64,000 bases of DNA from a virus (lineage: Duplodnaviria > Caudoviricetes). Shown in pieces: positions 7,649 through 64,000 of the stretch. The position numbers and the translations under genes are program-made. The notes under the pieces were generated by a model. The model saw only the letters and a program-made list of their open reading frames with translations. It did no database searches and was not told the origin of the DNA. Every line of letters starts with the position of its first letter. Position 1 is the first letter of the stretch. Location of the stretch: the IMG/VR virus record IMGVR_UViG_3300037067_003427, positions 5,505 to 69,504 of that record; one strand, written 5' to 3'.

Positions 7649-8314
7649 TCAGTCTGCCATACGGCAACTTTCAATGCAAAGAATCTTCACCCTGTTTGAA
7701 AGCCAGTTTGCAAGTCCATCAATCCTTCTTCCGTCATAATCTAAACGAGCATTTATGTGTTGTTCGCCAACATAATATTCAACCTTTTTAAGTGACTCTT
7801 CTCCATTATATAAGATGTCGTATTCAGCGCCCTCAGTGTCACACTTCATGAGTTTTACTTTATCGATGTTAAATCTCTGGAACGCTTCATCAAGAGTAAT
7901 AATGTCACATTCTGCTTTTTCATGCCATTTCGGATTGAAAGTCATAAAAGAAGAGGACCCTCCTGAGTCCCCTTTCTTCCCGAAGAATATTTGAACCTTT
8001 CCATTTATCTTTCCCAGACCGATGTTATGAGGTTCGATATTAACACCATTTAATTCGATGTTTCTTAACAATGTAGCATAGGTTCTCGGGACAGGTTCAA
8101 GAGAAATGATTCGTGCTTCTGGAAAACATTTGGCCATAAGAATAGAGAACATCCCTTCACACGCACCTACATCGAGAATCGTATCTCCCTTTCCGAATAC
8201 AAGTTTGCTCTGAAGCACCTTATAATTATCTGAAAAGATTTCCGTTATTAGGTCCTTTGCCATGAATGTTTCTTCAAAATAGAATTTCACTCCCCCAAAT
8301 TCATGTTCAATCAT
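7649..8314 (-). CDS. FkbM-family SAM-dependent methyltransferase
   Basis: Motifs ILDVGACEG, ISLEPVP and LMKCDTEGAEYDIL. Confidence 0.85.
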   Translation of the reverse strand: MIEHEFGGVKFYFEETFMAKDLITEIFSDNYKVLQSKLVFGKGDTILDVGACEGMFSILMAKCFPEARIISLEPVPRTYATLLRNIELNGVNIEPHNIGLGKINGKVQIFFGKKGDSGGSSSFMTFNPKWHEKAECDIITLDEAFQRFNIDKVKLMKCDTEGAEYDILYNGEESLKKVEYYVGEQHINARLDYDGRRIDGLANWLSNRVKILCIESCRMAD

Positions 8315-8472
8315 TATTCTTCCTCAATTTTTTAATAATGTTTATAACTGAACTGCATGACAATCCAGATCCATACGGTTCTCTTAAAACTCCACTTTCT
8401 TTTAAAGAACGTCTTTCCTTTTTTGAAATAACAATATCCTTTACTAAATATTTTAGTCTACCGAATTCATGT

Positions 8473-9054
8473 TCAATAATTCCATCCCCCATATTGTTCT
8501 TCATCCCTTTGTTTCTCAAGTTCAACAATAGACACAACTCCCATTATGTCATCTATAACAAGCAATGGAACTATTTTTTTAATTGCTTCGTCTGAACAAT
8601 CCCACCATTTTAATTCAAGAAGTCTTTTAATGTGCCATTCAGGAAGTCTGTATCTTATAAGTTCGGCCGGATTTCCACCTACTATTTCATAGGGATTTAC
8701 ATCTCGTACAACATGGGATCGTGCAGCAATGACTGCCCCATCTCCTATCGTCACACCACGCATAATCGTTACATCTCTTCCTATCCATACGTCGTTTCCT
8801 ATAATAACGTCTGGTTTTTCGGTAAACATGGGAGGAGGAGCAATCGGGAAGACATCTGTGTGGGCATAGCCGAATCCATAAGTGGACAGTGCTCTCGAAT
8901 TGTGCCTACCTCCCAGTATGATATGAACGTTTTTAGCAATGGAACAGAAGGCGCCAATCTCCACCTTCCCTTCACCATCCCAACAATGAACCGTAATGTT
9001 GTACGCTTCAGAAGAATACTTTCCTACTTTTGTAATTGCAGGACTTAGAGACAT
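8473..9054 (-). CDS. CatB/Vat-related hexapeptide-repeat (LbH) O-acetyltransferase
   Basis: IGAFCSIA, IGNDVWIGRDVTIMRGVTIGDGAVIAARSHV, VGGNPA, LLELKWWD. Confidence 0.85.
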   Translation of the reverse strand: MSLSPAITKVGKYSSEAYNITVHCWDGEGKVEIGAFCSIAKNVHIILGGRHNSRALSTYGFGYAHTDVFPIAPPPMFTEKPDVIIGNDVWIGRDVTIMRGVTIGDGAVIAARSHVVRDVNPYEIVGGNPAELIRYRLPEWHIKRLLELKWWDCSDEAIKKIVPLLVIDDIMGVVSIVELEKQRDEEQYGGWNY

Positions 9055-9239
9055 ACCCTGTTCCTTTTTTTGGCCAATAATCGTGTAACTCTTTTCTGTT
9101 TTTTAATTTTATTCTTTTCCCTTCTACCTTCAGCTTTATAACGGGCGCATTTTACTTTGTTGCGTCCATACTTTTTTGCTCCCTTACCACCCTCCTTTCT
9201 TCGTTTCTTAGTAATAACAACCTTTGCCGTTTTTGCCAT
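9045..9239 (-). CDS. Small, highly basic protein
   Basis: 64 aa, K/R-rich (KYGRNKVKCARYKAEGRREKNK); possible nucleic-acid binder. Confidence 0.5.
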   Translation of the reverse strand: MAKTAKVVITKKRRKEGGKGAKKYGRNKVKCARYKAEGRREKNKIKKQKRVTRLLAKKRNRVCL

Positions 9240-9299: not shown

Positions 9300-9965
9300 T
9301 TATTCCTCCTCTTTTTTTGTTTCCTCGTGCATACCCCCCAGTAACATTTCAGGCGCTGCGGTTTGAGATACCTCTTCTTCGTAAGGCGTAAGATCGCTTT
9401 CCGGATTTGTGGCACGTTCGAGTTGCTTCAAGTCAATCCCCGTATTCATCTGTTTCTCAAGTAGTTTCTCATCCTCCAGACCTTTTAGGACCACATAAAC
9501 CATTCTGTTAGAATTAACACCTTCTTCTTTAGACCTTATTCTCGCAGCCATAAGCGAAGACTCGATCTTCATAAGTTCTTTGACCATAAACTTGAACTCA
9601 GAATCTGCCTTCATCATATCGACTAGTCGTTGTCTGCCCTTTTTCCTTCCGTTGCCCACTGAATTTCTATAGGCATATCTCAGATCCTGAAGCATCTGAT
9701 ATGCAGACTTTGCATCGCCGGAATCAAACTTTTCCACCACCTCGTCCACTTCAACCACTTCCGGAACTATCCCCGCTTCTCGTTCAGCCTTCAGTCTTTT
9801 TTTGTTGGCGTTGGCCTTATCGCGTCCACTTTGCATAGCAGCGCGTTGCTGAATCTTTCTCAGTTCTTCTTTGGAATAGTTTCCCTTTTTCTTTTCGTTG
9901 AAGTAATCAGATATCGGTGCATCTTTGGTAGGTTTACCACCATTCTTGGTAGTCATTCCAAACAC
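9300..9965 (-). CDS. Hypothetical protein, possible terminase small subunit
   Basis: 221 aa, helical and charged, near the start of the packaging operon; function inferred from position only. Confidence 0.35.
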   Translation of the reverse strand: MFGMTTKNGGKPTKDAPISDYFNEKKKGNYSKEELRKIQQRAAMQSGRDKANANKKRLKAEREAGIVPEVVEVDEVVEKFDSGDAKSAYQMLQDLRYAYRNSVGNGRKKGRQRLVDMMKADSEFKFMVKELMKIESSLMAARIRSKEEGVNSNRMVYVVLKGLEDEKLLEKQMNTGIDLKQLERATNPESDLTPYEEEVSQTAAPEMLLGGMHEETKKEEE

Positions 9966-19298: not shown

Positions 19299-19502
19299 TT
19301 AAGTGTTCTTTTCGATCCTTATGTATGGGATCTTTGCTACAGGAAGTCCGATAATGGGAGACATTTTCACAGCGGAATCAAAAAAAGGAACTCGTTTGGT
19401 ATAAATCCATGAGTTTATGGTTGTAACCTTAAAACCGGCCTTTTTTAATTCCTTGCGATATTTCTTTACCAAAAGTCGAAATTTTGTCTTATTGGTTTTC
19501 AA
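19299..19502 (-). CDS. Small Cro/XRE-like HTH protein
   Basis: 67 aa, basic; ELKKAGFKVTTINSWIYTKRVP resembles an HTH recognition helix. Confidence 0.45.
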   Translation of the reverse strand: MKTNKTKFRLLVKKYRKELKKAGFKVTTINSWIYTKRVPFFDSAVKMSPIIGLPVAKIPYIRIEKNT

Positions 19503-20862
19503 TTATCTCGTATTCCCTTATCCAATCAATCACAGCTTCAGAAAATCCATCAACATGGGTCCATGCGCCATAGCCGACACCGTTCTGAGCGGAGGCAACA
19601 TTAATCAAATAGTTATGCTTTCCAAGCAGACGCGCCTTTGAGGGCGAGTCGTCATAGCCAATTCCGCAATCCTGTTCATCGGTAATGACAATCACGCGGT
19701 CAACGTCACCCTCGGCCTTGTAGACAAAATCCATGACCTGCTTCAAGAAAATGCCTCCACCGCCGAGAGGACGACAAAGCTGATAAATGGCATCCGACAG
19801 AGCGAAGCCGTGGCGGGAAGGAACCAACTGAGTCTTGTGGACTCGCGTACTATCATTCCCCGCTGTCGCGTAAATAATCGGAACTTCGCACAACTCCCTA
19901 ACAAGGATAGCCAATGAACAGGCGACGTTTGCCCGATCAATTTCGGAGTATTTTGATACCGGGTTCCCATACATGCTCCCCGAAACATCAACAACCATTG
20001 CGGTCTTTCCGGGAAGTTTCGTAAATTGCGATAGGCAATTCAGCATGGGAGTCTCAATCGCCTCTTCTGCCCACAGGTTATGTTTGGCGGCTACGATGAA
20101 CCTAAAAGGCAAAACTCGGTCTGTTTTCATTCTCGCTAATGAATCTTGGATAAGAGACTCCGGCACCTTGGCCTCTTTCATGTTACGCAGGTTTCGCAAG
20201 AAAGCCAAGGCCCCCAATTTATTCTCAGAAATCAATCGTTCCCATGTTTCTTTTTTATCTTTTCCAGAAGACAATGCAACTTCCCATGTATCCGGAGGAG
20301 ATAGGGTTCCACAAACAAGATCATTCCAATCAGCAGATTGCAAAACGTCTTTTGGCTTTGCGTGACAAAGGAAAAGAACATCACGAAGTTTTATTGTTTC
20401 GTCACGATTATACTTTGCCAGTTGATAGGCGTTGAATTTTGTAAACGCTGAAGCAAGACCTTTTTTTACCTGAGCAGAAAGTGGTTGCTTGCCTTCTTTC
20501 CAGTATATAGCAAGAAATTCGGTAAGCTCATCTGGGCGCTGAATGACTTTTGCCAACACAGAGGCGGTATTTTTATATCCAATTCTTGCCAATTCACGTA
20601 CCAGTAAAAGTGGAACATGGCGAAGTTTGAACTTTTCTCGTGCTTCAATGGCCAATTCCGCTACTTTTTGTGAATCAACATCATTTACAAGAGAAGCAAT
20701 GCGAGAGGCAACCGTTTCTCCGTCTTCATAAAACTCTCTTTCCCAAAGCATACAAGAGCACACAGACCTTCGTAACTTTTGATAGGCGTTGATGTGTACC
20801 GCTTTTGCTCCTTCGTGGGTGTAAATAGGTTCTTTTTTAACTGTTTTATTCAACTTCGCCAT
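19489..20862 (-). CDS. rsr: Ro60/TROVE-domain RNA-binding protein with C-terminal VWA domain (Rsr ortholog)
   Basis: THEGAKA, LRRSVCSCMLWEREFYEDG, LRHVPLLL, IQRPDELTEFLA, AYQLAKYNR, PDTWEVALS, VVDVSGSM (MIDAS), IVITDEQ; true start MAKLNK follows RBS AAAGGAGG. Confidence 0.92.
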   Translation of the reverse strand: MAKLNKTVKKEPIYTHEGAKAVHINAYQKLRRSVCSCMLWEREFYEDGETVASRIASLVNDVDSQKVAELAIEAREKFKLRHVPLLLVRELARIGYKNTASVLAKVIQRPDELTEFLAIYWKEGKQPLSAQVKKGLASAFTKFNAYQLAKYNRDETIKLRDVLFLCHAKPKDVLQSADWNDLVCGTLSPPDTWEVALSSGKDKKETWERLISENKLGALAFLRNLRNMKEAKVPESLIQDSLARMKTDRVLPFRFIVAAKHNLWAEEAIETPMLNCLSQFTKLPGKTAMVVDVSGSMYGNPVSKYSEIDRANVACSLAILVRELCEVPIIYATAGNDSTRVHKTQLVPSRHGFALSDAIYQLCRPLGGGGIFLKQVMDFVYKAEGDVDRVIVITDEQDCGIGYDDSPSKARLLGKHNYLINVASAQNGVGYGAWTHVDGFSEAVIDWIREYEIIENQ

Positions 20863-20890
20863 ACTTTCTCCCTCCTTTAATGTGATTAAT

Positions 20891-20965
20891 TTGGGGGAAC
20901 AAGCGGTTTTCGGTAGTTGCCTTTCGGCCTTCCCATATGAAGTAACTGAAACCTTCGCCACCCAA
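20891..20965 (-). ncRNA. Y-RNA-like module 3 (about 75 nt)
   Basis: TTGGG-TGGCGAAG-GTTTCAG-TTACTTC...GCC-GAAA-GGC...CGAAAAC-CGCTTGTTC-C-CCCAA; the two ends pair. Confidence 0.7.
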
Positions 20966-20974
20966 AAGATTATA

Positions 20975-21039
20975 ACCAGGGAATAATCGATAACGGTCTT
21001 TTCATTTCAAGTGAAGTATCCGTAATCTTCGCCACTGGT
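20975..21039 (-). ncRNA. Y-RNA-like module 2 (about 65 nt)
   Basis: ACCAG-TGGCGAAG-ATTACGG-ATACTTC...CCGTTAT-CGATTATTC-C-CTGGT; the two ends pair. Confidence 0.7.
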
Positions 21040-21046
21040 ATATTTT

Positions 21047-21174
21047 TGGGGAAGTGGGTAGGAGTCGAACCTACAGCCTCGTCATTATCCTTGAAGTAAC
21101 TCTTATCTTCGCTACCTTTCGGAGAACAGGCGATAAGAGAAATTTTCGCGCTCTACCGCTGAGCTACCACTTCC
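21047..21174 (-). ncRNA. tRNA-shaped Y-like RNA (128 nt): tRNA shell with a 65-nt Ro-binding-type module in place of the anticodon arm
   Basis: Acceptor GGAAGTGG/CCACTTCC + encoded CCA; T8A9; D arm GCTC-AGCGGTA-GAGC; variable loop AGGCT; T arm GTAGG-TTCGACT-CCTAC; the insert carries the same AGCGAAG/TTACTTC motifs as modules 2 and 3. Confidence 0.85.
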
Positions 21175-27581: not shown

Positions 27582-27938
27582 ATGAAAATGACCGACGAAG
27601 TTCCATATTGGAACGAAAAACAATATCAACATAACCACTACTGGATAAGAAGCAACTATGGAAAGGCTGACCATTGTTCAAATGATATTTCTCATAAGGG
27701 GCCATTTCATTGGGCAAATATTAGTGGACTACACTTACAAAACATATCGGATTATATGCAACTTTGCGTTAAGTGTCACTCAAGACTAGACAACAAAAAA
27801 GTTACTCATTGTCCACGAGGACATCTATATGATGATAAAAATACTTATATAACCCCACTAGACAAGCGGATGTGTCGTATATGTGCAAAAGAAGCAACAA
27901 GAAGATACAAGGAGAAAAAATATGCAGCAGTTGTCTGA
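27582..27938 (+). CDS. HNH endonuclease with C-terminal zinc-binding module
   Basis: HWANISG...YMQLCVKCH; THCPRGH...MCRIC. Confidence 0.7.
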   Translation: MKMTDEVPYWNEKQYQHNHYWIRSNYGKADHCSNDISHKGPFHWANISGLHLQNISDYMQLCVKCHSRLDNKKVTHCPRGHLYDDKNTYITPLDKRMCRICAKEATRRYKEKKYAAVV

Positions 27939-43200: not shown

Positions 43201-46200
43201 ATAATCATATCCTGTTCAATACGGATATTCTTCCCCCCACGATTTCCGGTAATATTAAATCTATATCCATCAAGGTGTTTCACCTCTCCATTATCCAATT
43301 CTCCCAATTTATTTTGAATCTTGTCTTTCCATGAAGATATTGTCTCATCGGCATAAGAATCTGCCGCCTTTTTGAGTCTAACGGCATCGATCTTTTGGGG
43401 TGGAAGTTCACTCATACGATAGGTTCCAGTTTGCCGTTCTAACACGTTTGAGATGGTTTCACGGTAGAATTTAGCAGAAGAACTATTATAGACTCCCCTT
43501 AGAGTTGGTCCGAATTGATCAACCATTCGTTTGAATTGTGATTCGATCATAGAAGAATATCTGGTTGCAATGGCTGGCTTATATTTATCAAGAACATCCA
43601 TTAATACTTTATTTTTTATACCAGTTTCGGTTTTTGGTGCTATACCTTCTTCAACAGGAATAATAGAATCCATAATCTCATGCAGTTCATCTAGTTTGGA
43701 TTTCATTCCATAATTACCACCAATGAAGTCCACAATGATATTCTTGAATTTCTGCCATACTGTTTGAGATTCCTTTTTCTCTCCTTCAGTTTTAATCGAA
43801 TCCAACCATCGGGCGAATCCTTTTCTTGTAAACGCATAAGATACGAGTTCTTCAGGTGTCATGTTTGCAATATCAATTATCTTCTTTACAGAATCAGGAG
43901 CATATTCTGCACGATTCTTAACCGAATCAAGAAGTTTATTAAGACGGTTGTTTAATAGAATTGCCTGTGCAGAAGTCATCTTTCCGATAAAGTTTCTTAT
44001 AATCGCGTGAATAGACTCATGGCCAAATGCTTCCATATACGCATCGGAAACATTTGAAAGATTTTGGTCTATATAAGGAGTGTTAAAAGTAATCCTGTTG
44101 TCATCCTTGTCATATACACCCACCGCTCTTTGTCTTGCTTCATGAGAGATGTTAGAAGGATCAAATGATATTTTAACTCCGAGTTTATCTAGTATGGGAA
44201 CCAGCCAACCGTAAGCAAATTTCTGACCTGTAGCCTTTTCGTAAAGCTCTACGGCTTTAGAAGGAGACATATCTTCTGCTTTTTGAAGATTCCACATGGA
44301 TTTAAGAAGTTCTTTACCTTCAGGTGATTGATCTTTGGAAGGTGAGGTCTCTCCTTGCATTTCAAGTTGGTTTTTTGCATTATCAAGTCTTTCCAATATC
44401 TGTGTCAAAATTTCTTCGGCATCATACCGATCTTCTGCATCCAACAACTTTTTAGCATCACGGCGTTTTTCCAGTTCTGGTGTTTTGAGTTCTTCGTAAA
44501 GAGTATCTATTGACTCTGCATCTTCCTTATTAGATTGATCCGTTGCTTTATCAACCTTTTCCTGAAGTTCAGAAAACTCCTTTTCCTGTTTGTATTTAAG
44601 TATATCTACAATTTTATTAGATTCGCCAGCAATAGGTGTTTCAAGTTGCTTTTTCCCTACTGCATCAAAGAAACTATCTACTTCTTTGGCATTGGCTTCA
44701 AGGACTTCGGGAGTAAGCCTTTCTTTTTCGAGTTCATTTACTGCCTCCTCCATTTCTTCTGCATGTTTTGCCAAAAGTGCCTCTGATTCTTTTTCAATCT
44801 GATCTACCTGCTTCTCGCTGATCTCCCCTTCAGTTCCACCTTTTTGCAGTCTTCCCATCTCACGAGGGTCTTTTAACGCTTCCATAAGATCAGAATCACT
44901 TTTAAAACCATGTTCCTGTGCAATCTCTCCGATGTTATTGTTTCCGCTTCCTCTGATAAGACCGGGGTATTGTTTTGTTAATTGTTTTATTGTGTTTGAA
45001 TCAGTAATCCCCCGTAATCCCGTTTTGGTTTCTTTGTTTCCAAGACCTATCCCCCCGCTTTTTCTAATCGCTTGAATGATAGGATTCATAGGATTGCTTG
45101 ATTTGGATGCTCGTATTCTTTTTGGGGCTTCCTTTACGGGTTCTGCTTTCTTAGCTTTAATCTTTTCACGAACAGCGGTAACACCTTTTCCTTCTTTCTT
45201 GCCAAATTCAACACGTTTTCTTGCGAGTGCTTCTGGAAGTGTTTCGTTTTTGCCAAGACTGAATGTAGTTCCTGTTTTGGGATCGGTGAATAATGGAATC
45301 GGTGGTTTGTTAACCCGTTCCTGCATATCATTAAATATAACACCAGCATCTTTAGCTTGTTTTTTGTAATCAGGTTCGGCGGCTTCTTTATGTTGAGTTT
45401 CCTTATTGATTTCACTTAATCTATCGTTGACGGTTTCAACAACAGTTGAGTATCTTTCGTTTAGTGGTATTTCTCTTTCAAGTGCAGATTTGCTATTGAA
45501 CCGAGATTGTTTCATCCCGAGATTTTTTTCATACAATTCCTTTGCCGCCTTTGATGACATTACGTTCCCATCGGTAACGTCTATTCTAAAGTCAGTAGTT
45601 CCCCTAACCGAATCAACTAATCCCGGTTTATATTTAACCACTTCCGAGTTAGGAAACATTTCTTTAAGTTCTTCAATCGTTGGTATCTTCCCCGAAGAAT
45701 CAAAAGATAAAGATATTATACTCCCATTTAAATTGGATTGAACGATTATTGGTTTATTAGGAGAAACACCCTCTATATTTGTTCCAGTCTGTTCTACTTT
45801 TTCTTCTTTTTCGGAAACAGCTTCTTCAGGCGGTAAAATAGCCTCATTTTTGACTTCTTCTGTCTTCAATGGAGCTTCAGTCGTTAAAACTTCTTTAGGG
45901 GCAATTTGAGGCTCAGATGCCTTTCCAGCAACCTCTTTCTGTGCATACTTCTTTACTATCTCATCTGGTTTTCCAGCAAGAACAGTATTGGCATCTTTAA
46001 GAAGCGTTTCGGCATCAGCAGTGGGATTCTTTTCGAGTACGAAATCAACTGCCGCCGCTACCTGAGATTTGTTAAGATTTGTCCAAAGGGAATTTTTCAG
46101 TCCTATGATGACATCATCACGGTTAGGATTTGCTTCTGTTTGTTTTGGAGTAAACCGTTGTGCCATATCTCTACTTAATTCCGGTTGGACAATAGGAGTA

Positions 46201-53020: not shown

Positions 53021-53464
53021 CTATGAAAGAGATATTGGAGCCGTAAGCAAGGAAACAACACCACCCGCAGTGATCGAAACAGCATTGATAACAAAAACAC
53101 ATGTAGAAGCTGTTCCAACATCACCATCAATAACGTGAGTTGCCGCTGATCCGGTATATCCCAGACCAACCGTTTTCATTCTTGCCCATCCAGCCGTTCC
53201 CGTTGTAGCTGCCGTTCCCGTATATCCTGCTGCATTTGCCAAGGCTGCCGTGCCTGATGTTGCTCCACCAGTTGTTGCCCATCCTATACCCGTAATGGTG
53301 CAAAGAAGAGTTCCACTGGTAGCCGAATCAGCATCTGCCGGTTGTGCGCCGGTGTATATTTCAAGTTGTGCCGTTCCGCCTGTTCCGCAGGTTCCAGCCA
53401 TGCACTTAACAATTCCAGCACTTATGGCATATTCTTTGAGGTCTAAACTTAATTTCAAGGCCAT
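53021..53464 (-). CDS. Virion structural protein, paralog of 53479-53934
   Basis: Shared motifs (IYTGAQPADAD / IYTGSQPVSAD, GWAR, D(G/M)xVG). Confidence 0.65.
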   Translation of the reverse strand: MALKLSLDLKEYAISAGIVKCMAGTCGTGGTAQLEIYTGAQPADADSATSGTLLCTITGIGWATTGGATSGTAALANAAGYTGTAATTGTAGWARMKTVGLGYTGSAATHVIDGDVGTASTCVFVINAVSITAGGVVSLLTAPISLS

Positions 53465-53478
53465 CGTTATTACCTCCT

Positions 53479-53934
53479 TTACTCAGCCGTTTCAGTAATG
53501 CTAAATGTGTTAATCGTAAGAGTAGAATCCAATGTCAGCGAAGTATGTGACAGATTTAGGTCAGCGCCGGAAACTCCTACACTCATATCAATTCTATTTT
53601 CTGTTGCCGAGGTTCCTGAAGTTCCACCAGTTCCGTAAAATCTTGCCCATCCAGCTACACCAGCAAGAATAACCTTTCCACTCCATACAGGCACCGTAAG
53701 GGGAAGCGTTCCAGTTGCCGCAGTTCCGAAGCGAAGACCGTCTGAAGCGGCTGTTCCGCTTGTAGAACTGATACGAACCAGTTTGCTTCCTGTTTCTACA
53801 TAGTCAGCACTTACGGGTTGCGAACCAGTGTAAATGTCCAAAAACCCACCTACCAAGATAGATTTCAGTCCTCCCGTACCCGTATAACCATCCAATAACT
53901 TGTTACGAATTCCCGTTGATAACCGAACAGCCAT
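53479..53934 (-). CDS. Virion structural protein
   Basis: MAVRLSTGIRNKLL...IYTGSQP.SAD motif common in podovirus tail modules. Confidence 0.65.
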   Translation of the reverse strand: MAVRLSTGIRNKLLDGYTGTGGLKSILVGGFLDIYTGSQPVSADYVETGSKLVRISSTSGTAASDGLRFGTAATGTLPLTVPVWSGKVILAGVAGWARFYGTGGTSGTSATENRIDMSVGVSGADLNLSHTSLTLDSTLTINTFSITETAE

Positions 53935-54918: not shown

Positions 54919-57876
54919 TTAAGAAGTCGCTCTTGTGACTTCGCCTTCTCTAAAGTTGTTCCTTTGCTTTTTATCCCTTTTGGCGTGCTCACCTGATAAT
55001 GACTTCCCTTTTTCTTTATCGTTACTGGCATGTAACACCTCCATAACCTTTTCTATTTCTTCTATCACACGCTCTTCGGTGATGTCTTTTGTGCAAATAT
55101 AATCCTTGTTTCTTGGACACCAATCGAACCCTCTATCTATAGGAAGAGAAGGGTCATGAAAGCATCCGGGGTTACATACATCAATAGAAATCCTGTGTTC
55201 ATTTGGGAAGTCATTCTCTTCTATGGAAACACCTGTAATCATAATACACGGCTTGTTGAGAGCATAGGCAATCCATGAAGGACCAGCATTAAGTCCTATA
55301 TAAAAATCACACCCTGCAACATCATTTATCGTCTGTTCAATCGGTTGCCCGTTGTGGCTTATGATACCTTCTAGGTTACCCTTTTCAGCACTTATTGAAA
55401 TGCACTCATATCCTTGAGCGTTCAAGTAATCGATAATCTTCTGCCATGCACCTTCACGGTTCCATAACTTATTCTTCATAGTTGAAAACTCCGAGAAGCA
55501 AACATAGGGTTTTGCCGGATTACCGTTGCCTCTTTTTGGGATTTGATACTTCAACTTCGCCCGAATAGGTTCGTATTCCAATCCAAGAATATCAGAAGCA
55601 ACCTTCTGAAGATTCGTTTCCCGCCAGTTCTTCACATTCTTGTCGAGTTGGTCATCAAAGCATCCTACTTCATAGGTAGCGTAAATGTCTTTAATCTCAC
55701 TTCCGGGGGTAATGAATTCGATATCCGGATAATCGAATATGTTTCTCCACCATGTTGAACAGTAAACCTTACACTCATGTTTCTTCCGGAACTCGTCAAC
55801 ATAAGGTATCCATGCAATCGTATCACCAAGGGCTTTTGACCCCATGGAGATAATGACGTTCTTCCCTTTTAAATCGATTTTATGCTCAAATTTTACATTT
55901 CCACCGAGGGATGCTTTCACAGTCCAGTCCTGATAATACTTTGTCTTGGATCTGCTCCACATTCCTACTTTCTGTTTGAGGTTATAGACGTTTTCCGCTT
56001 CTTTGGTACTCCATGCAATATCGTATTCGTTATTGGACATGCTCGAAGAACCGATAATCTGAAGGAATGCACCATCTACAAAATGACACAGGAACCGATC
56101 TTCGCCCCATAGAGTTCGATCTGCCTGATCGAAACGGTTCACAATATCCATCTTGATGAACTCGACATTCTTTTCAATGTCGTAAATCTTGGAAACGTGT
56201 TCATAAAGCCATCGTTCTGCAAGGAACCTATGTTCGGGATAACGGCTTGCGTATTCTTCCCATGAGGAAAGATAGGGGTATATCTTGTCCATGACTTCTG
56301 TTTTAGCCGCCATTAAATGACCGCCGAACGTCTTTGGATCACCTTCCCACTGTAAACAGATCATGTCCTTATCGGAGTTATGAACTTTGTTTAACCAGTC
56401 GTTTAAATCCACTTCCACATCGAAAGACATCTGGTAAATCCAGTCGAATTTCCCTCTGGCAAAATTGATTCCATTACGAAGGTTGTTAAGACCAGCCACG
56501 GCATGATACTGAACTCTCGCCCTCTTTTGTTCCATTGAACCATCTGGGAGTTGCCGCCAATAAACAGGATGGTCATCTCCGGAAAGGATGTCTTTCTTTT
56601 CGTAAACAAAGTAATCAGCCATCGTCATAACTTCAGTAGGAACAGGATAGTGAGAAGTGACAATAACTTCATATCCAGCCCTGTGAATCTGTTCGATGGT
56701 TTCCTTTAGGGTTTCCATCTTGGCAGGAGTATCAGGCCAGCAATCTACAGCAAATACAGTGCTTCTCTTTTTCATGTCTGTAATGTCATAACCGTGACTT
56801 CGGGCATAAGATTTGATTTCCTTTTCAGTATTTACTACTTCAAACGGTTTTTCCAGATGTCTGGAAAACTCATTAAGAATCTCCATGGCTGTTTCTGCTG
56901 CCTTTGCCCACGAGAACTTCGTCCGTATCATTTCAGATAGCTTTAAAGCCTTCTCTTTATGTTCTGAATAGTTTTCATAAACGTCCTTCATCTTCTCAAC
57001 GAGATTATTGTAATCCGGCTCTCCCCACTGACCGGGAACATCCCAGTTTCCATAAATCCCTTCCGGTTTCTTTAATTCGCTGATCCGGACAACAATAGCA
57101 TCTCCTGCATATTCGGTAGAGCCGCCAAAATCGGAGCATATGGACGGAATTCCACACGCCATTGACTCGATGAGAGGCAGGTTCCATCCTTCTGAACGAG
57201 CGCAGGTAACCACACAGTGCGCCGCCTGAAGCCGCCTGATATAATCCGGCCTTGCTTCATAATGTATAGGGATGATTCGTGAGTCTTCGAGGCCATATGC
57301 TTTTAACCTTTCTTCTGTTGAGTTGTAATTGTCCGAAGGAAAAAGGGTATCCGCTGAAAGATAAAGACGAACATTTGGATTATCTGGGAACGCTTTTAAG
57401 AACGATTCACATATCTCTTTGGTTGATTTTCTTGCTTGCCACTGACCTACATGAACAAAATTAAAGTTTGGCTGAGAGTACACTATGTTTTCTCCTCCCG
57501 GCTCCTTCTTTTTTGGTTTATAGACTTCTGGGTCAACACCTTCATGAACCACTCGAATAAATTCCTCTGGTACTCCTTGAGCAATGGCACATGACTTTTC
57601 CCATTCCGAAACAAGCCAAAGCTGATCGTAATACTTAAGGTTGACAAGAAACTGTGCCGGGTACTGAGTCGATTCCCAGACCGTATAAAGGATACTTGGT
57701 GAAGGTGGAAACTTGATTATCTGTGACGCTGTAACAACATCAAGCAAAGAAATGTGAACATCTCCCTTTCCTTCAAACTTTACCGTTGCCAGTTTCGCAA
57801 GCTGTTCCGTAAATCTGGAAGCATGGACTTGATAACCTGTTCGTTCTCCAATAGAACCGTGAAATACTATGTTCAT
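54919..57876 (-). CDS. Multi-domain glycosyltransferase: GT4-like GT-B domain + middle domain + TibC/Aah-like (autotransporter heptosyltransferase-type) domain
   Basis: N-terminal HVGQWQARK...RSEGWNLPLIESMACGIP; C-terminal SKALGDTIAWIPYV, KLWN...WQKIIDYL, FYIGLNAGPSWIAYAL and Cys set CNPGC...WCP...ICTK. Confidence 0.82.
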   Translation of the reverse strand: MNIVFHGSIGERTGYQVHASRFTEQLAKLATVKFEGKGDVHISLLDVVTASQIIKFPPSPSILYTVWESTQYPAQFLVNLKYYDQLWLVSEWEKSCAIAQGVPEEFIRVVHEGVDPEVYKPKKKEPGGENIVYSQPNFNFVHVGQWQARKSTKEICESFLKAFPDNPNVRLYLSADTLFPSDNYNSTEERLKAYGLEDSRIIPIHYEARPDYIRRLQAAHCVVTCARSEGWNLPLIESMACGIPSICSDFGGSTEYAGDAIVVRISELKKPEGIYGNWDVPGQWGEPDYNNLVEKMKDVYENYSEHKEKALKLSEMIRTKFSWAKAAETAMEILNEFSRHLEKPFEVVNTEKEIKSYARSHGYDITDMKKRSTVFAVDCWPDTPAKMETLKETIEQIHRAGYEVIVTSHYPVPTEVMTMADYFVYEKKDILSGDDHPVYWRQLPDGSMEQKRARVQYHAVAGLNNLRNGINFARGKFDWIYQMSFDVEVDLNDWLNKVHNSDKDMICLQWEGDPKTFGGHLMAAKTEVMDKIYPYLSSWEEYASRYPEHRFLAERWLYEHVSKIYDIEKNVEFIKMDIVNRFDQADRTLWGEDRFLCHFVDGAFLQIIGSSSMSNNEYDIAWSTKEAENVYNLKQKVGMWSRSKTKYYQDWTVKASLGGNVKFEHKIDLKGKNVIISMGSKALGDTIAWIPYVDEFRKKHECKVYCSTWWRNIFDYPDIEFITPGSEIKDIYATYEVGCFDDQLDKNVKNWRETNLQKVASDILGLEYEPIRAKLKYQIPKRGNGNPAKPYVCFSEFSTMKNKLWNREGAWQKIIDYLNAQGYECISISAEKGNLEGIISHNGQPIEQTINDVAGCDFYIGLNAGPSWIAYALNKPCIMITGVSIEENDFPNEHRISIDVCNPGCFHDPSLPIDRGFDWCPRNKDYICTKDITEERVIEEIEKVMEVLHASNDKEKGKSLSGEHAKRDKKQRNNFREGEVTRATS
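56851..56866. repeat. Dispersed 16-bp quasi-palindrome, copy 9
   Basis: TTCCAGATGTCTGGAA inside the CDS (FSRHLE). Confidence 0.95.
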
Positions 57877-61294: not shown

Positions 61295-61960
61295 CTATAA
61301 TGAAAATGCCAGTTCTATAATAAGTCCCTTGCCAGCAGTTGTGTGAACATTCGGAACATCAACTCTAATAATTTGTCCAGTTGTTACGTTATCATTATTT
61401 GTATCTATAGTTCCTGGAGTTGCCGAAGTTCTTGTACTCATTTCTGAACCCTCTATTTCCATATTGGCACTTAACATGGCAACCGTACCAGTTCCAGCAG
61501 TCCCTGTATTCGTAAGGGCGATTCCACATGATCCACCGGTTCCACCAGCAGTCATCAACGTTGCGGCAACCCTTACAAGATTAAAGGCATTAAGTTCATC
61601 AGGAACAACAAAATATGCTTTTCCGTTTCCGGTACTTGCATCATCGGTAGGACTTCCAAGTATAATTTGTACAGCACGTACTGGATAACCAGTTCCACTT
61701 GTTCCCGAAGTTCCATGAGAACCTGCTGAACCTGTTGCACCTGCACTTCCGGAAGTTCCCGAAGTTCCATGAGAACCTGCTGAACCTGTTGCACCTGCAC
61801 TTCCGGAAGTTCCCGAAGAGCCAGCAAGTGCTGTCTCCACCCCGTTAGAGTCTTTGAAATAATACTTATTATCTGACTTGGCGTATAACCTTACTGATCC
61901 AACCGGAGGCGTATCAGGAGCATCACCTTCAGTCATTGTTATCTTTGATGCATTTGCCAT
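61295..61960 (-). CDS. Short tail fibre-like protein with a Gly-X-Y Ser/Thr linker
   Basis: GSSGTSGSAGATGSAGSHGTSGTS repeats between N- and C-terminal globular domains. Confidence 0.65.
   Translation of the reverse strand: MANASKITMTEGDAPDTPPVGSVRLYAKSDNKYYFKDSNGVETALAGSSGTSGSAGATGSAGSHGTSGTSGSAGATGSAGSHGTSGTSGTGYPVRAVQIILGSPTDDASTGNGKAYFVVPDELNAFNLVRVAATLMTAGGTGGSCGIALTNTGTAGTGTVAMLSANMEIEGSEMSTRTSATPGTIDTNNDNVTTGQIIRVDVPNVHTTAGKGLIIELAFSL
61701..61818. repeat. Exact 54-nt tandem duplication (about 2.2 copies)
   Basis: Unit gttcccgaagttccatgagaacctgctgaacctgttgcacctgcacttccggaa starts at 61701 and 61755; partial third copy at 61809. Confidence 0.9.
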
Positions 61961-61968
61961 AATTCCTC

Positions 61969-63999
61969 CTAAAGGCTTTCACAACAATATCGTGCAGCCG
62001 TTAATGAAGATTGTGTATTTCTACCTATCGAAATTTTTCTGCTCAATGTACCAGCCTTGTTTGCATCAGTATAATGTCCACCAGCAACCATTTTTGACTC
62101 AGATTGCATATATACACTCCCTCGTTGATCTTCAAGATCGGTAAGTGTAAATGTTGCAGCAGTACTATAATCTCCACCAACAATCATAAATGCTTGATCT
62201 AAAAGCCACTGGTCATATACTCCCACCATATCTTCACAACCTATATTTGATACTATCCTCCCAATATTAGAAACCTCAGTTTTCGGATATCCTGCTGTAC
62301 CAGCTCTTGTATTCGTTCCATCGTGCAAAGTCTCTCCATCCGTAAATCCTGCTGTACCACTTAAATTACGACATAAATATACTGTTGGAGATACTTTATA
62401 TAACACCTGTGCCTGCAAAGTACTTGTGTTTCCATGTACGGGCGCTCCTCCAGGAACAAAATCTCCCGGTGTTGGCGCTCCATCAAGTGTAAGAGTAAAT
62501 AAACATGAATGAGAACCTGTCATATTTCCAAATGGAACGCCACCGTATATTTGACTTTCATCCCACGATCCATCTGCCGCCGATTGAAACTCGCTATCTG
62601 TTAAAAGTCTTTTGCCAACAGAATGACCATCAGAAACAGCGCTAGTCCACCGCCTTGAGGTAGTAATAGTTCCCGCATAACGACTTTCGGTTGCTATTCC
62701 CGTAGATTCTGATAAATAAATATCTATCCAAAGACCCGTATTAGGATCGTAAGTCATACCAGTATTATCTAAACATCTAGCGCGATGAGTTAAATCCCAA
62801 ATGCTATTTGGAATAATATCTTTTGTACTCTTTCCTGACATTCCAATATCAGCAGTAATCCATACCGTTCCTGCATCAGTTACTGATTGTCCAACAACAG
62901 GCCATGAAGGTGCTGCCGTTCCGGTTACTCCTTGATACTGAGCACGATATTTATACAGACTAGTTCCAGCATCACCAAATACACACCAATATCCATGCCA
63001 TACACCAGTTGATGCTTGCCACCCATAGAGTTCTTCGCAACCATAACAAAACGTATGGAACCCACCCAACCTGAAAGAAGGACGAGGAGTCTTATTCCAA
63101 GAAAAAGGACCAGTATAAGTATTAGCAGTTTCGCTGTCTGTACTTACTTTATATTCAATATTACTTCCATTTAAACATGCATAAACATAAAAATCTTCTC
63201 CCTCATATATATTCCCATATGCATCGTAATCATAACTTGTCTCAATATTAATTTCTGTGTCACTAGAAATAGTATAATTTATATTACTAATAGTTATGAC
63301 AAAAGGTCCATTTGTTTCACCTAAAATTTTTATAGTACTTCCACTTGTTCCCGCTCCCAAGATTCTTCTTGATCTATCGGATAAACCAGTCAAATATGAA
63401 CCAATCGCACTCGATGTACCAGACGATCCTGAACTTCCAGAAGTCCCAGTTACTATAGATTCTAAAACAACAATCTCACCACCATCTCCCATGGTTATTG
63501 TCCCACCATTATTTAAATGATCGAATACAGGATACTGTTCACCGTCTCCAATACTAACAGTTCCATTTGTTCCAATATCCCAAAAGATCGTTACGCCAGT
63601 ACTCGTACCTGACTCACCGCTAGACCCTGAACTTCCACTCGTACCACTCGTACCATGGCTACCGTCTGTACCTGAAGTTCCATGACTACCAGCCGAACCA
63701 GTATCTCCCTTTGATCCCGAAGTTCCACTTGTCCCAGAGGTTCCATCTGTTCCACTTGTACCATGACTTCCTGCTGATCCTGTATCACCTTTTGAACCAG
63801 ATGTGCCGGAAGTTCCCGATGAACCCGATGTTCCGTCACTTCCTCTTGACCCCGAACTGCCAGATGTACCGGAAGTTCCATGAGTACCGGCAGAACCCGA
63901 TGTACCAGACGATCCTGAACTTCCACTACTTCCAGAAGTCCCACTAGTCCCACTAGTTCCAGAAGTACCATCAGTACCACTTGTACCAGAGGTTCCATG
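61969..63999 (-). CDS. Tail fibre/receptor-binding protein (5'-partial): Ser/Thr Gly-X-Y region + Mtd-like C-type-lectin-fold C-terminus
   Basis: The frame of the 61969-63492 ORF is open to the window edge; IIPNSIWDL, LWIDIYL, GKRLLTDSEF, GCEDMVG, GG...AARYCCE resemble BPP-1 Mtd-type adhesins. Confidence 0.75.
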   Translation of the reverse strand, partial: HGTSGTSGTDGTSGTSGTSGTSGSSGSSGSSGTSGSAGTHGTSGTSGSSGSRGSDGTSGSSGTSGTSGSKGDTGSAGSHGTSGTDGTSGTSGTSGSKGDTGSAGSHGTSGTDGSHGTSGTSGSSGSSGESGTSTGVTIFWDIGTNGTVSIGDGEQYPVFDHLNNGGTITMGDGGEIVVLESIVTGTSGSSGSSGTSSAIGSYLTGLSDRSRRILGAGTSGSTIKILGETNGPFVITISNINYTISSDTEINIETSYDYDAYGNIYEGEDFYVYACLNGSNIEYKVSTDSETANTYTGPFSWNKTPRPSFRLGGFHTFCYGCEELYGWQASTGVWHGYWCVFGDAGTSLYKYRAQYQGVTGTAAPSWPVVGQSVTDAGTVWITADIGMSGKSTKDIIPNSIWDLTHRARCLDNTGMTYDPNTGLWIDIYLSESTGIATESRYAGTITTSRRWTSAVSDGHSVGKRLLTDSEFQSAADGSWDESQIYGGVPFGNMTGSHSCLFTLTLDGAPTPGDFVPGGAPVHGNTSTLQAQVLYKVSPTVYLCRNLSGTAGFTDGETLHDGTNTRAGTAGYPKTEVSNIGRIVSNIGCEDMVGVYDQWLLDQAFMIVGGDYSTAATFTLTDLEDQRGSVYMQSESKMVAGGHYTDANKAGTLSRKISIGRNTQSSLTAARYCCESL
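63601..63999 (-). repeat. Collagen-like Gly-X-Y run dominated by GTS/GSS (about 44 triplets, truncated by the window edge)
   Basis: Manual translation: HGTSGTSGTDGTSGTSGTSGTSGSSGSSGSSGTSGSAGTHGTS...GESGTS. Confidence 0.9.
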
Positions 64000-64000
64000 C

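Follow-up and report, generated by a model that had tools for sequence, protein, structure and literature searches.

On balance, the phage described here probably glycosylates its own collagen-like tail fibers in the host cytoplasm. The evidence lies in gene content, protein folds, conserved catalytic residues, synteny, and co-occurrence in other phages. The analysis used a 64 kb window (64,000 nucleotides) of a 69.5 kb viral contig. Bases 53-157 at the head of the contig repeat its end (99% over 105 nt), and both ends carry 9 nt periodic repeats; the ends overlap inside a fiber gene, which implies a circular genome. Virion genes lie in a late operon on the minus strand, and a sugar cassette lies on the plus strand among replication-type genes. 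An earlier note on this DNA had described sugar synthesis and tailoring genes in the middle operon, a large glycosyltransferase in the tail operon with two tailoring genes in the packaging operon, and two Ser/Thr-rich Gly-X-Y tail proteins. All three observed parts were confirmed; the interpretation placed on them is partly supported.

A single glycosyltransferase gene was found in the genome; it encodes a three-domain protein that is predicted to be soluble, as it has no membrane segment. Within the virion block, the gene has an endolysin-like and a head-closure gene as its neighbors and lies ~3.4 kb downstream of the fiber genes in the same operon.

54919-57876, minus strand: glycosyltransferase, 985 residues, three transferase domains
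56857-57876, minus strand: domain 1, residues 1-340, GT4-type GT-B fold (PF00534, phrog_2170)
56077-56832, minus strand: domain 2, residues 349-600, GT-A/nucleotide-diphospho-sugar transferase fold (AF2 model, Foldseek)
54919-56145, minus strand: domain 3, residues 578-985, TibC/Aah-fold protein O-glycosyltransferase (phmmer, TIGR04414, AF2 model)

Domain 1 matched PF00534 (43.5 bits, cut-off 26.4) and phrog_2170 (E 1e-30). It contains an E-x7-E motif (EGWNLPLIE), in which E229 is invariant among 26 homologues and E237 nearly so (at least 90%). Domain 2 had no sequence-family match; its AF2 model (pLDDT 91.8) matched glycogenin and GnT-I in Foldseek (E ~4e-6), with a VIA Z of 12-13 to GT2/GT-A enzymes, and it carries an invariant D486-x-E-x-D490 motif. 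Judged by sequence and predicted structure, domain 3 is a true TibC/Aah-type domain, as the earlier note had proposed. It matched TibC (4RAP) in phmmer (E 1e-36), and its AF2 model superimposes on TibC with a TM score of 0.80-0.86 (rmsd 2.4-2.8 Å); the TM score to LPS heptosyltransferases is 0.48. The domain has an N-terminal β-barrel, a catalytic Asp (D685), and a Cys4 cluster (C901, C905, C920, and C928). It retains D110, T226, K230, and W305 of TibC as well as the four Fe-finger Cys; homologues show no variation at the catalytic Asp or at these Cys, and the catalytic and ligand-binding residues stay invariant down to 34% identity. The adenine-contacting R286 of TibC is replaced by Thr and P300 by Asn, the thumb hairpin region is ~10 residues shorter, and the TIGR04414 score (196.4 bits) falls slightly below the cut-off of 200; together these features suggest that the donor and quaternary structure may differ from those of TibC. 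The label "heptosyltransferase" cannot be assumed for this domain, because the Arg that specifies adenine in TibC is replaced.

The proposed acceptors are two fibers encoded on the same strand.

61969-64000, minus strand: large collagen-like fiber, C-terminal 676 codons (translation, repeat counts, PHROG match)
61295-61960, minus strand: small collagen-like fiber, 221 residues, 15 Gly-X-Y triplets (repeat count, PHROG)

The large fiber gene runs on across the junction of the contig ends into bases 1-1039, for a total of ~970 residues. When the circle was closed at the overlap, a single frame of 982 codons was obtained, in which 121 Gly-X-Y triplets follow one another without a break; the part inside the window holds 44 triplets. 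A run of 121 consecutive triplets cannot have arisen by chance. X is Thr in 75 and Ser in 38 triplets, Y is Ser in 84, and Pro is absent from the repeats; these Gly-(Thr/Ser)-Ser repeats supply ~200 Ser/Thr per chain. The run follows a short N-terminal domain and is succeeded by a 51-residue break, four more triplets, and a C-terminal domain of ~480 residues that resembles the phrog_11262 tail protein (E 2e-30). The small fiber matches PHROG tail fiber and collagen-like minor tail families, and 70% of its X and Y positions are Ser/Thr. Gly/Thr-rich phrog_3758 proteins are encoded at 53021-53934.

The test of enzyme-repeat co-occurrence suggested by the earlier note gave a strongly positive result in both directions. 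A repeat ORF (at least 15 triplets, 70-96% Ser/Thr, mostly on the same strand) was present at ~43 of 80 TibC-like loci and at ~24 of the 33 that have a full 10 kb upstream flank. In the reverse sample, viral contigs chosen by the Ser/Thr Gly-X-Y DNA coding-repeat pattern alone had a TibC-like domain in 12 of 44 cases, compared with 0 of 48 random contigs (Fisher p = 6e-5; like all co-occurrence counts here, this is uncorrected for shared ancestry). Surroundings were fetched for 11 of the 12 positives, and the repeat gene lay no more than 10 kb from the TibC gene in seven and within ~4.1 kb in six. Stand-alone TibC-like genes were seen at ~20 of 79 loci, nine of which also hold repeats, so the TibC domain is the constant partner. 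The domain occurs in 4 of 50,697 GenBank phage records; one carrier, Microcystis phage Mel-JY01, has an unannotated 202-triplet fiber 1.7 kb upstream of it. In the literature, we found no paper on this enzyme-fiber pairing.

It is very improbable that nothing is glycosylated, with the transferase inactive or otherwise employed and the repeat association reflecting shared ancestry of tail modules. The counts leave some room for this, being phylogenetically uncorrected, and many TibC-like loci belong to a small number of related lineages from freshwater or groundwater. The invariant catalytic and ligand-binding residues nevertheless argue for an active enzyme, as do the inteins tolerated within the transferase gene of some lineages (inteins tend to sit in conserved, important genes) and an association that holds across very different genome sizes and domain architectures.

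Glycosylation of some other acceptor, the repeats being merely frequent neighbors in tail-fiber modules, is unlikely but carries more weight. Candidates in the virion are the capsid, the tail tube, the phrog_3758 proteins, and non-collagen Ser/Thr fiber stretches; in the host, they are an adhesin, pilin, or flagellin. Two close relatives, G046 and G047, have the glycosyltransferase, FkbM, and sugar genes and lack any Gly-X-Y run reaching 10 triplets; their big fiber has only a Ser/Thr/Ala-rich stretch, which indicates that the acceptor is not strictly a collagen-like repeat. In 4 of the 11 fetched positives, over 10 kb separates the repeat gene from its TibC counterpart. The native acceptor of TibC is a β-helix rather than a triple helix (PMC4358343), and mycobacteriophage acceptors are, as cited in PMC12619734, the C termini of capsid and tail-tube subunits. 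Against this, the association holds specifically for this kind of repeat (the 12/44 versus 0/48 above), the two genes are often directly adjacent (gaps of 40-45 nt or overlapping ORFs), and the pattern spans contigs of 10 kb to 300 kb, stand-alone TibC genes included. Self-glycosylation of the fibers, the reading of the earlier note, gains from the TibC-type domain, virion-operon synteny, and co-occurrence and is weakened by G046 and G047.

Sugar-tailoring genes lie in two places. Three minus-strand genes include the FkbM and acetyltransferase genes upstream of the large terminase and portal genes, and eight plus-strand enzyme genes span 25777-38727.

7649-8314, minus strand: FkbM-family methyltransferase, candidate glycan O-methylase (PF05050, PF05575, TIGR01444)
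8473-9054, minus strand: hexapeptide-repeat (Vat/CatB-like) O-acetyltransferase, candidate glycan O-acetylase (PF00132)
9300-9965, minus strand: 221-residue protein that adjoins FkbM in relatives
25777-26475, plus strand: sugar-1-phosphate nucleotidyltransferase (PF00483, TIGR02623 partial, 1TZF)
29423-30592, plus strand: radical SAM/SPASM-type enzyme (PF04055)
31036-32403, plus strand: first B12-binding radical SAM enzyme (PF02310 and PF04055)
32591-33097, plus strand: RmlC-like NDP-4-keto-6-deoxyhexose 3,5- (or 3-/5-) epimerase (PF00908)
33407-34612, plus strand: NDP-hexose 3-C-methyltransferase (TcaB9/KijD1/mycarose type), full length (PF08421 and PF08484)
34609-35754, plus strand: DegT-type NDP-keto-sugar aminotransferase (PF01041, 385 bits)
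35754-36164, plus strand: 136-residue ORF between the aminotransferase and acetyltransferase genes
36177-36758, plus strand: GNAT N-acetyltransferase, candidate amino-sugar N-acetylase (PF13302, PF00583)
36736-37152, plus strand: 138-residue protein that adjoins the second B12-radical SAM gene in relatives
37471-38727, plus strand: second B12-binding radical SAM enzyme (PF02310 and PF04055)

The FkbM product (PF05050, 54 bits; TIGR01444, 96 bits) passes the cut-off of the Vibrio cholerae RfbT family (PF05575, 30.6 bits versus 27.9), which O-methylates terminal perosamine. The hexapeptide acetyltransferase scored 140 bits against NF000311, under the cut-off. The nucleotidyltransferase is nearest to glucose-1-phosphate cytidylyltransferase (1TZF, E 6e-24), and mannose-1-phosphate guanylyltransferases match more weakly. 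All matches of the SPASM-type enzyme, to PF04055 and SPASM-type maturase families, are far under the cut-offs. The first B12-radical SAM enzyme matched the AprD4 family (NF033070, 50.8 bits), its nearest solved relative being the sugar diol-dehydratase AprD4 (6FD2, E 2e-10); the second matched AprD4 weakly. The RmlC-like protein scored 150.8 bits against PF00908 and 136.9 bits against TIGR01221 (cut-off 155.75) and resembles solved RmlC enzymes (E 4e-28). The C-methyltransferase aligns across its full length with 5T64, 4RV9, and 3NDI (E 1e-59 to 1e-61), the aminotransferase is nearest to perosamine synthetases (3BN1, E 2e-64), and the GNAT protein has a weak PseH-like match (TIGR03585, 31.7 bits). 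No Pfam, PHROG, NCBIfam, or Atlas lead was obtained for the 9300-9965 protein, no family match for the 136-residue ORF, and no family or Atlas lead for the 138-residue protein. The whole 69.5 kb genome has no SDR-type 4,6-dehydratase, epimerase, or reductase (ketoreductase included), and the earlier note's description of the system as "complete" does not hold.

Seven relatives were compared, one of which (G047) has terminal repeats. The glycosyltransferase is present in all seven, always inside the virion operon. A cassette of NTP-transferase, SDR dehydratase, C-methyltransferase, and B12-radical SAM genes, plus FkbM, is found in five to six; FkbM (with the 9300-9965 protein adjoining it) and the SDR dehydratase-family gene each occur in six. 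So do the second B12-radical SAM gene (49-62% identity), the most conserved sugar-cassette gene of the family after FkbM, and the 138-residue protein next to it. The C-methyltransferase is found in five, DegT in two, and GNAT in one; the hexapeptide acetyltransferase, the SPASM-type enzyme, and the RmlC-like gene are each found in none. Across this phage family, the sugar cassette is accessory and varies in content. One relative (G050) has the glycosyltransferase and repeats with no sugar genes; this, and the scarcity of DegT, indicate that a tailored sugar is dispensable for the core function.

The cassette could instead, or even together with the transferase, remodel LPS, capsule, or S-layer glycan of the host during infection, for surface conversion or superinfection exclusion. 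Genes of the RmlC, perosamine-synthase, and RfbT kinds are classically O-antigen genes, the cassette sits among early/middle genes on the strand opposite to the virion genes, and the studies of aquatic phages consulted here usually read such genes in this way (PMC7029224, PMC10202952). We nevertheless regard it as improbable, although the earlier note had named it the main alternative. The genome has no integrase or recombinase, which makes lysogenic conversion unlikely; the scanned ORFs include no membrane-associated transferase, flippase, polymerase, or Gtr-type gene; and the sole transferase is soluble, has a protein-directed TibC fold, and is embedded in the virion operon of all relatives.

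There is similarly little probability that the cassette is unrelated to the transferase, serving a small molecule, DNA hypermodification, or disturbance of the host nucleotide-sugar pools while the transferase draws on ordinary host donors such as ADP-heptose or UDP-hexose. The cassette is variable and partly missing in relatives that keep transferase and fibers (G045, G050), is broken up by unrelated small phage ORFs, and has no dehydratase, which relatives possess; AprD4-like and SPASM radical SAM enzymes typify aminoglycoside or RiPP chemistry. However, the scanned ORFs contain no DNA-modification or biosynthetic scaffold genes, and, apart from the transferase, the genome encodes no enzyme that can use an NDP-sugar. 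TibC-positive phages show an excess of dehydratase genes (SDR type in 16 of 36 records versus 3 of 48 random records), and in some homologues (L043) methyltransferase domains are fused into the same polypeptide as the transferase.

For the favored reading, glycosylation of the fibers by the phage itself, we infer the acceptor, donor, order of steps, and benefit as follows. Late in infection, the soluble enzyme would act on the Gly-(Thr/Ser)-Ser repeats of both fibers. Ser/Thr hydroxyls would receive their first sugar from the TibC-fold domain, the other two domains (GT-A fold and GT4) would lengthen it to a short oligosaccharide, and FkbM and the hexapeptide acetyltransferase may add O-methyl and O-acetyl caps. 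The plus-strand cassette would remodel an NDP-hexose pool. Its likely product is a perosamine-like sugar, a C-methyl-branched, N-acetylated 4-amino-4,6-dideoxyhexose, and one or more of the three transferase domains may take this sugar as donor. Since dehydratase and ketoreductase are lacking, the NDP-4-keto-6-deoxyhexose would have to come from the host, or a keto-deoxy sugar would have to arise via the AprD4-like radical SAM enzymes. The tailored sugar may be the one attached to the fibers, a claim kept conditional because the sugar genes are accessory and variable. The likely benefit is that the Pro-free triple helix is stabilized and shielded from protease or antibody, or that the glycan serves adsorption.

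Compared with known NDP-deoxysugar pathways (TcaB9/KijD1/TylC3, Per, RmlC), the phage has full-length homologues (E 1e-61, 2e-64, and 4e-28, respectively), together with the RfbT-like FkbM enzyme. It differs in lacking the 4,6-dehydratase and 4-ketoreductase, in adding three radical SAM enzymes (two with B12 domains and AprD4-like), and in having its genes interleaved with unrelated small ORFs. Mycobacteriophages offer a precedent, since they encode transferases that glycosylate their virions (Freeman et al. 2023, Cell Host Microbe, cited in PMC12619734). There too, glycosyltransferase genes adjoin structural genes and the phage's own virion proteins are modified; as far as that citing source describes them, however, the transferases are of ordinary GT families rather than TibC-like, and the system has neither a collagen-like acceptor nor a sugar-tailoring cassette dedicated to it.

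TibC-TibA and Aah-AIDA-I of E. coli are bacterial autotransporter heptosyltransferase systems (BAHT; TIGR04414; PDB 4RAP/4RB4; PMC4358343), and TibC represents a family of protein Ser O-glycosyltransferases. Domain 3 shares with TibC the whole-domain fold, including the β-barrel, the catalytic Asp, the phosphate- and sugar-binding Thr/Lys/Trp, and the four-Cys metal site. Both enzymes are soluble and cytoplasmic and hyper-glycosylate, in the phage as proposed here, Ser of a repetitive fibrous protein encoded nearby. Unlike TibC, the phage domain is fused behind two more transferase domains, has C-x3-C in place of C-x2-C as its first Cys pair, has a shortened version of the thumb hairpin used for the TibC dodecamer, and scores marginally under the equivalog cut-off; with Thr and Asn in place of Arg286 and Pro300, its donor need not be ADP-heptose. 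The acceptor of TibC is an autotransporter β-helix, whereas that of the phage would be a Pro-free collagen-like Gly-Thr/Ser-Ser fiber repeat.

BclA, a bacterial spore protein, differs from the phage fiber in having Pro in its repeats (GPT), and a small operon devoted to its glycan cap encodes, among others, a DegT-type aminotransferase and an acyltransferase. The transferase that primes BclA is not TibC-like, and the system has no C-methyltransferase or radical SAM enzymes. According to PMC7793302 and its refs 27 and 28, BclA of the Bacillus anthracis/cereus exosporium (anthrose operon) is likewise a densely O-glycosylated collagen-like Gly-X-Thr fiber, and in B. anthracis the oligosaccharides on the collagen-like region end in a 4-amino-4,6-dideoxyhexose that is methylated and N-acylated. 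By analogy, BclA is a better functional analogue for the putative acceptor than the autotransporter β-helix.

The 69,504-bp IMG/VR viral record, of which the window spans bases 5505–69504, is rated complete by CheckV, and the window has a G+C content of ∼40%. Its tail half had no nucleotide match among GenBank phages by megablast. On the minus strand is one long virion block. The major head protein and further structural genes lie within the 5.5 kb preceding the window; beyond the contig junction come the two collagen-like fibres, small ORFs and an endolysin-like gene, followed on the same strand by the 985-aa transferase, a head-closure gene, virion structural proteins and a 2374-aa ORF. The sugar genes occupy the plus strand, interspersed with small ORFs, a YopX gene and an HNH gene.

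Main features of the window (window coordinates)
1679–3967, minus strand: portal/adaptor, in the virion block
4000–6387, minus strand: large terminase, in the virion block with the FkbM and acetyltransferase genes
7649–8314, minus strand: FkbM methyltransferase
8473–9054, minus strand: hexapeptide acetyltransferase
21–40 kb, plus strand: sugar genes
40206–47330, minus strand: 2374-aa ORF, closing the virion block
54919–57876, minus strand: three-domain glycosyltransferase, 985 aa
61295–61960, minus strand: second collagen-like fibre
61969–64000, minus strand: large collagen-like fibre, crossing the contig junction

A promoter and terminator scan of 53–64 kb found sites no more often than in shuffled sequence, which leaves operon boundaries undefined. 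The 2374-aa ORF has no Pfam or PHROG match and is conserved patchily (26–48% identity) in five of the seven family relatives; its product may sit inside the virion or be an ejection protein. Family, PHROG, NCBIfam and Atlas searches gave no lead for the ORFs at 9300–9965, 36736–37152 and 35754–36164. At 19489–21173 on the minus strand lie the gene for a 490-aa TROVE (Ro60-like) protein (PF05731, E 7e-18) and, ahead of it, a tRNA-like element of 124 nt, which scores 44.8 bits against the Rfam tRNA model and was not called by ARAGORN. Together they look like a phage Ro60/Y-RNA-like (YrlA-type) module, and the TROVE gene occurs in none of the seven relatives.

DNA with a 9-nt period is present at both contig ends, and contig bases 53–157 repeat the last 105 bases of the contig at 99% identity. 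Closing the circle on this 105-base overlap yielded a single open frame of 982 codons, the large fibre.

Layout of the large fibre, from N to C terminus
N-terminal region, ∼76 residues
121 unbroken Gly-X-Y triplets
51-residue break
four further triplets
C-terminal domain, ∼480 residues

The C-terminal domain matches a PHROG tail protein, and the long Gly-X-Y tract is set between non-collagen domains, as in other bacterial and phage collagen-like proteins. The stabilization of the triple helix by Pro or charged pairs that belongs to such proteins was not found, the 125 triplets containing no Pro at all. Position X is Thr in 75 triplets and Ser in 38 (90% together), position Y is Ser in 84, Asp in 13 and His in 12 (71% Ser/Thr), and Lys and Arg are few. 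The second fibre has 15 triplets. The earlier note, which had described two tail proteins with Ser/Thr-rich Gly-X-Y runs, was right and even understated the case, given the length of the tract in the joined frame. Contig bases 1–83 are an exact copy of window 63357–63439, inside the fibre gene, and the contig head switches to the contig-end sequence through a 31-nt internal repeat; this duplication is either an assembly (de Bruijn-graph) artefact at the repeat or a deletion variant without ∼486 nt of repeats. Just downstream of the transferase, past the head-closure gene, two small virion structural proteins (phrog_3758; 53021–53934, minus strand) are encoded in tandem; they are paralogues, unusually rich in Gly and Thr (14–16% each) as well as Ala and Ser, and are possible extra glycan acceptors.

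The transferase has three domains and no hydrophobic segment. Domain 1 (residues 1–340) belongs to GT4, with PF00534 scoring 43.5 bits (cut-off 26.4) at residues 141–260; within its E-x7-E motif, EGWNLPLIE, E229 is invariant and E237 nearly so in the homologue alignment. Domain 2 (residues 349–600) matched no sequence family, and a PDB sequence search gave nothing useful. Its model (pLDDT 91.8) has a GT-A/nucleotide-diphospho-sugar transferase fold, found at E 4e-6 by Foldseek and at Z 12–13 across ∼165 residues by VIA, with the proviso that nucleotidyltransferases share this fold and score similarly. D486 and D490, candidates for a DxD-type acidic motif, are invariant. In two relatives (L028:1199–5203, in genome G015, and L039:10001–14134) the GT4 domain of the transferase homologue is interrupted by an intein that combines a Hint/intein splicing domain with a LAGLIDADG homing endonuclease and that extends the ORF to ∼1335–1378 aa.

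Domain 3 (residues 578–985) matches the TibC structure 4RAP at E 1e-36 by phmmer. The AF2 model of this region (pLDDT 87.8) superimposes on 4RAP with a TM score of 0.80–0.86 and an rmsd of 2.4–2.8 Å over 381–395 columns, the N-terminal β-barrel included, whereas the runner-up families, LPS heptosyltransferases among them, reach only ∼0.48. The model thus combines the N-terminal β-barrel with the atypical GT-B catalytic domain that defines the overall fold of bacterial autotransporter heptosyltransferases (BAHT). The family model TIGR04414 scores 196.4 bits (E 7e-58) over positions 26–374 of 374, narrowly below its equivalog cut-off of 200. Residues were checked against a list from the TibC structure paper (PMC4358343). 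The catalytic base Asp110 corresponds to D685, in KALGDTIAW, which does not vary in 26 full-length homologues or in 31 diverse domains. Cys339, 342, 358 and 370 correspond to C901, C905, C920 and C928, all invariant in the 26 close homologues; among the 31 diverse domains the last three never vary and the first hardly does. The first pair of this predicted iron finger is C-x3-C, against C-x2-C in TibC. The donor-binding Thr226, Lys230 and Trp305 are T799, K803 and W868, invariant or nearly so, and the conserved TibC residues hold in phage homologues down to 34% identity. We consider it highly improbable that an enzyme with these residues modifies nothing whatever. Two TibC residues are replaced: Arg286, which reads adenine N1 and accounts for ADP-sugar specificity (PMC4358343), aligns with Thr849, itself nearly invariant in the phage clade, and Pro300 aligns with Asn863. 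The thumb hairpin needed for the TibC dodecamer (residues 262–277; PMC4358343) faces a gap of ∼10 residues. Domain 3 therefore belongs to the TibC fold family without being an equivalog; with both residues replaced, the thumb shortened and the score below cut-off, ADP-heptose cannot be taken for granted as its donor, nor a dodecamer as its assembly. In a distant homologue (L043:5959–10296), two class-I methyltransferase domains are fused with GT4 and TibC-like domains, a hint that methylation of the glycan may belong to the same process.

The association between enzyme and repeats was examined from both sides. A single-protein locus search found only 3 loci, and an alignment-based scan of IMG/VR was then used. 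This found relatives in 203 contigs and returned 79 loci; the clade accounts for no fewer than 203 IMG/VR contigs and 595 protein clusters. All 79 loci carry the TibC-like domain, most with GT4 and many with the GT-A domain, and in ∼20 there is a stand-alone TibC gene. Loci that seemed to have GT4 only were considered as a natural control and ruled out, as all have a TibC-like domain ∼4.5 kb downstream. When the locus of Microcystis phage Mel-JY01 (L001) is added, ∼43 of the 80 loci have an ORF with at least 15 triplets of 70–96% Ser/Thr, mostly on the same strand; where the full 10-kb upstream flank is available, the count is ∼24 of 33. The largest repeat ORF has 859 triplets. In the reverse direction, IMG/VR was scanned with a DNA pattern that takes no account of the enzyme, seven GGN-WSN-WSN triplets in a row. 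The TibC-like domain (E 1e-21 or better) was present in 12 of the 44 searchable records, most of them fragments, and in none of 48 control records chosen by an arbitrary 14-mer (Fisher one-sided p = 6e-5). Among the 11 of the 12 positives with fetched surroundings, the repeat ORF lies within 10 kb of the TibC gene in seven and within ∼4.1 kb in six; some repeat ORFs are 40–45 nt away or overlap it. All these counts are uncorrected for shared ancestry; the pairing spans contigs of 10–300 kb and several domain architectures. The co-occurrence check that had been proposed for this system was thus positive both ways.

TibC-like domains are found in only 4 of 50,697 GenBank phage records, one of them from a cultured phage, Mel-JY01 (PP395634.1). 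Bases 2–3049 of its plus strand hold an unannotated frame of 1016 codons with 202 Gly-Thr/Ser-Ser triplets and a normal C-terminal domain, 1.7 kb upstream of a 1226-aa homologue of the transferase. At that position the deposited annotation places a pair of minus-strand CDS, Pro-rich and labelled 'hypothetical', and is probably on the wrong strand. The homologue, annotated as 'FkbM methyltransferase', was considered as an FkbM fusion; Pfam finds no FkbM domain in it, and it is a fusion of GT4 and TibC-like domains. Representative bacterial and archaeal genomes gave only six loci, all on MAG contigs that resemble mis-binned phage (one of 68 kb in a 'Nitrosotalea' MAG), and so neither a host clue nor a clean bacterial example.

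The earlier note had proposed a candidate complete system that included NDP-sugar synthesis and tailoring genes. The genes themselves stand on solid homologies. Along its full length the C-methyltransferase aligns with TcaB9, KijD1 and the mycarose enzyme (E 1e-59 to 1e-61), the aminotransferase is nearest to perosamine synthetases (E 2e-64), and the RmlC-like cupin matches at E 4e-28. The nucleotidyltransferase is nearest to glucose-1-phosphate cytidylyltransferase, the GNAT protein has a weak PseH-like match, FkbM also clears the family cut-off for V. cholerae RfbT, and the hexapeptide acetyltransferase is Vat/CatB-like. Two radical SAM enzymes have a B12 domain, with the sugar diol-dehydratase AprD4 as their sole solved relative, and a third is of SPASM type. 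From these homologies we infer an N-acetylated 4-amino-4,6-dideoxyhexose that carries a C-methyl branch and is capped with O-methyl and O-acetyl groups. Completeness was not borne out: a six-frame search of the whole genome found no SDR dehydratase, epimerase or reductase family, PF16363 and PF01370 included. Of the canonical NDP-6-deoxyhexose pathway, the nucleotidyltransferase, epimerase, C-methyltransferase, aminotransferase and N-acetyltransferase are thus present, and the 4,6-dehydratase and 4-ketoreductase were not found.

Seven relatives of 66–76 kb were compared gene by gene.

Genes of the window found in the seven relatives
Glycosyltransferase: 7 of 7
FkbM and its adjoining uncharacterized gene: 6 of 7
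Second B12-radical SAM and its adjoining uncharacterized gene: 6 of 7
C-methyltransferase: 5 of 7
Nucleotidyltransferase (weak match): 5 of 7
DegT: 2 of 7
GNAT: 1 of 7
RmlC-like, SPASM enzyme, hexapeptide acetyltransferase: 0 of 7 each

The comparison shows a family core of transferase, FkbM and B12-radical SAM, with aminotransferase, epimerase and acetyltransferases swappable. A PF16363 (SDR dehydratase-family) match is present in six relatives, and in the five that bear the cassette the gene has the nucleotidyltransferase on one side and the C-methyltransferase on the other; the present phage has therefore lost or replaced it. It must draw NDP-4-keto-6-deoxyhexose from the host or, which is speculation, use its extra radical SAM enzymes. 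Across phages, SDR dehydratase genes occur in 16 of 36 TibC-positive records and 3 of 48 random ones (p = 4e-5), and in 15 of 29 and 2 of 15, respectively, when only records of at least 50 kb are counted (p = 0.013). A three-way association of transferase, fibre and sugar genes exists, and with it before us we think it quite unlikely that the cassette is unrelated to the transferase; one relative, G050, does have transferase and repeats without sugar genes. The core is the transferase–fibre pair, to which the sugar cassette is an accessory that can be exchanged.

Taken together, the comparisons lead us to favour, with slightly better than even confidence, a reading in which the phage would O-glycosylate its collagen-like fibres in the cytoplasm. 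The TibC-fold domain would prime the fibre glycans, the GT4 and GT-A-fold domains would extend them, FkbM and the acetyltransferase would cap them, and the cassette would supply at least part of the donors. Ser/Thr Gly-X-Y ORFs are found in five of the seven relatives. The other two, G046 and G047, have no such ORF; all they show, upstream of the transferase, is a large fibre with a stretch rich in Ser, Thr and Ala. They keep alive the reading, unlikely in our estimate, that other proteins are the acceptors. Papers on aquatic phages interpret glycosyltransferases as modifiers of DNA or the host surface. For this phage, remodelling of the host surface seems improbable. The genome has no detectable tyrosine or serine recombinase, so the phage looks virulent, and temperate serotype conversion was judged unlikely as no integrase was found. 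DNA hypermodification was likewise judged unlikely, matching genes not being found among the ORFs scanned. Fibre glycosylation can also be put in a stronger form, which we regard as doubtful: a largely self-contained viral collagen glycosylation machine in which a three-domain 'assembly-line' enzyme would prime and lengthen O-glycans at ∼200 Ser/Thr per chain, glycan rather than proline or hydroxyproline would stabilize the Pro-free helix, and AprD4-like and SPASM radical SAM enzymes would replace the 4,6-dehydratase to give a previously undescribed C-methyl-branched N-acetyl amino-deoxy sugar.

To our knowledge, the only role described so far for TibC/Aah enzymes is the virulence-associated modification of autotransporter adhesins in Proteobacteria, and our full-text literature searches returned no paper tying TibC-like enzymes to phages and collagen-like fibres. 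The role of the family is widened here by a sister clade that is a conserved virion-module gene, genetically coupled to Pro-free Gly-Ser/Thr collagen-like fibres. The present genome, 69.5 kb and apparently complete, is a compact case that unites fibre, transferase, candidate capping enzymes and sugar-tailoring cassette, and the same pairing in cultured Mel-JY01 makes the idea directly testable. The hypothesis, comparative throughout, is coherent, applies widely and lends itself to experiment. In mycobacteriophages it is established that phage enzymes glycosylate the virion (Freeman 2023, cited in PMC12619734). If the fibres are glycosylated, the phenomenon would reach well past actinobacteriophages, the stability of Pro-free collagen-like helices would be explained, and a new enzyme–acceptor pair would be available for glyco-engineering collagen-like materials. 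BclA of Bacillus spores offers a likeness on the side of the predicted acceptor: its collagen-like region bears glycans with a methylated, acylated 4-amino-4,6-dideoxy sugar cap (PMC7793302). On the enzyme side, the 985-aa protein is predicted to work like TibC/Aah and differs in its equivalog score, in the Arg that reads adenine, and in its presumed acceptor: no scanned ORF matched an autotransporter family, and the neighbours of the transferase are collagen-like fibres. We therefore regard it as a new branch of the TibC/Aah enzymes and not as a member in the strict sense.
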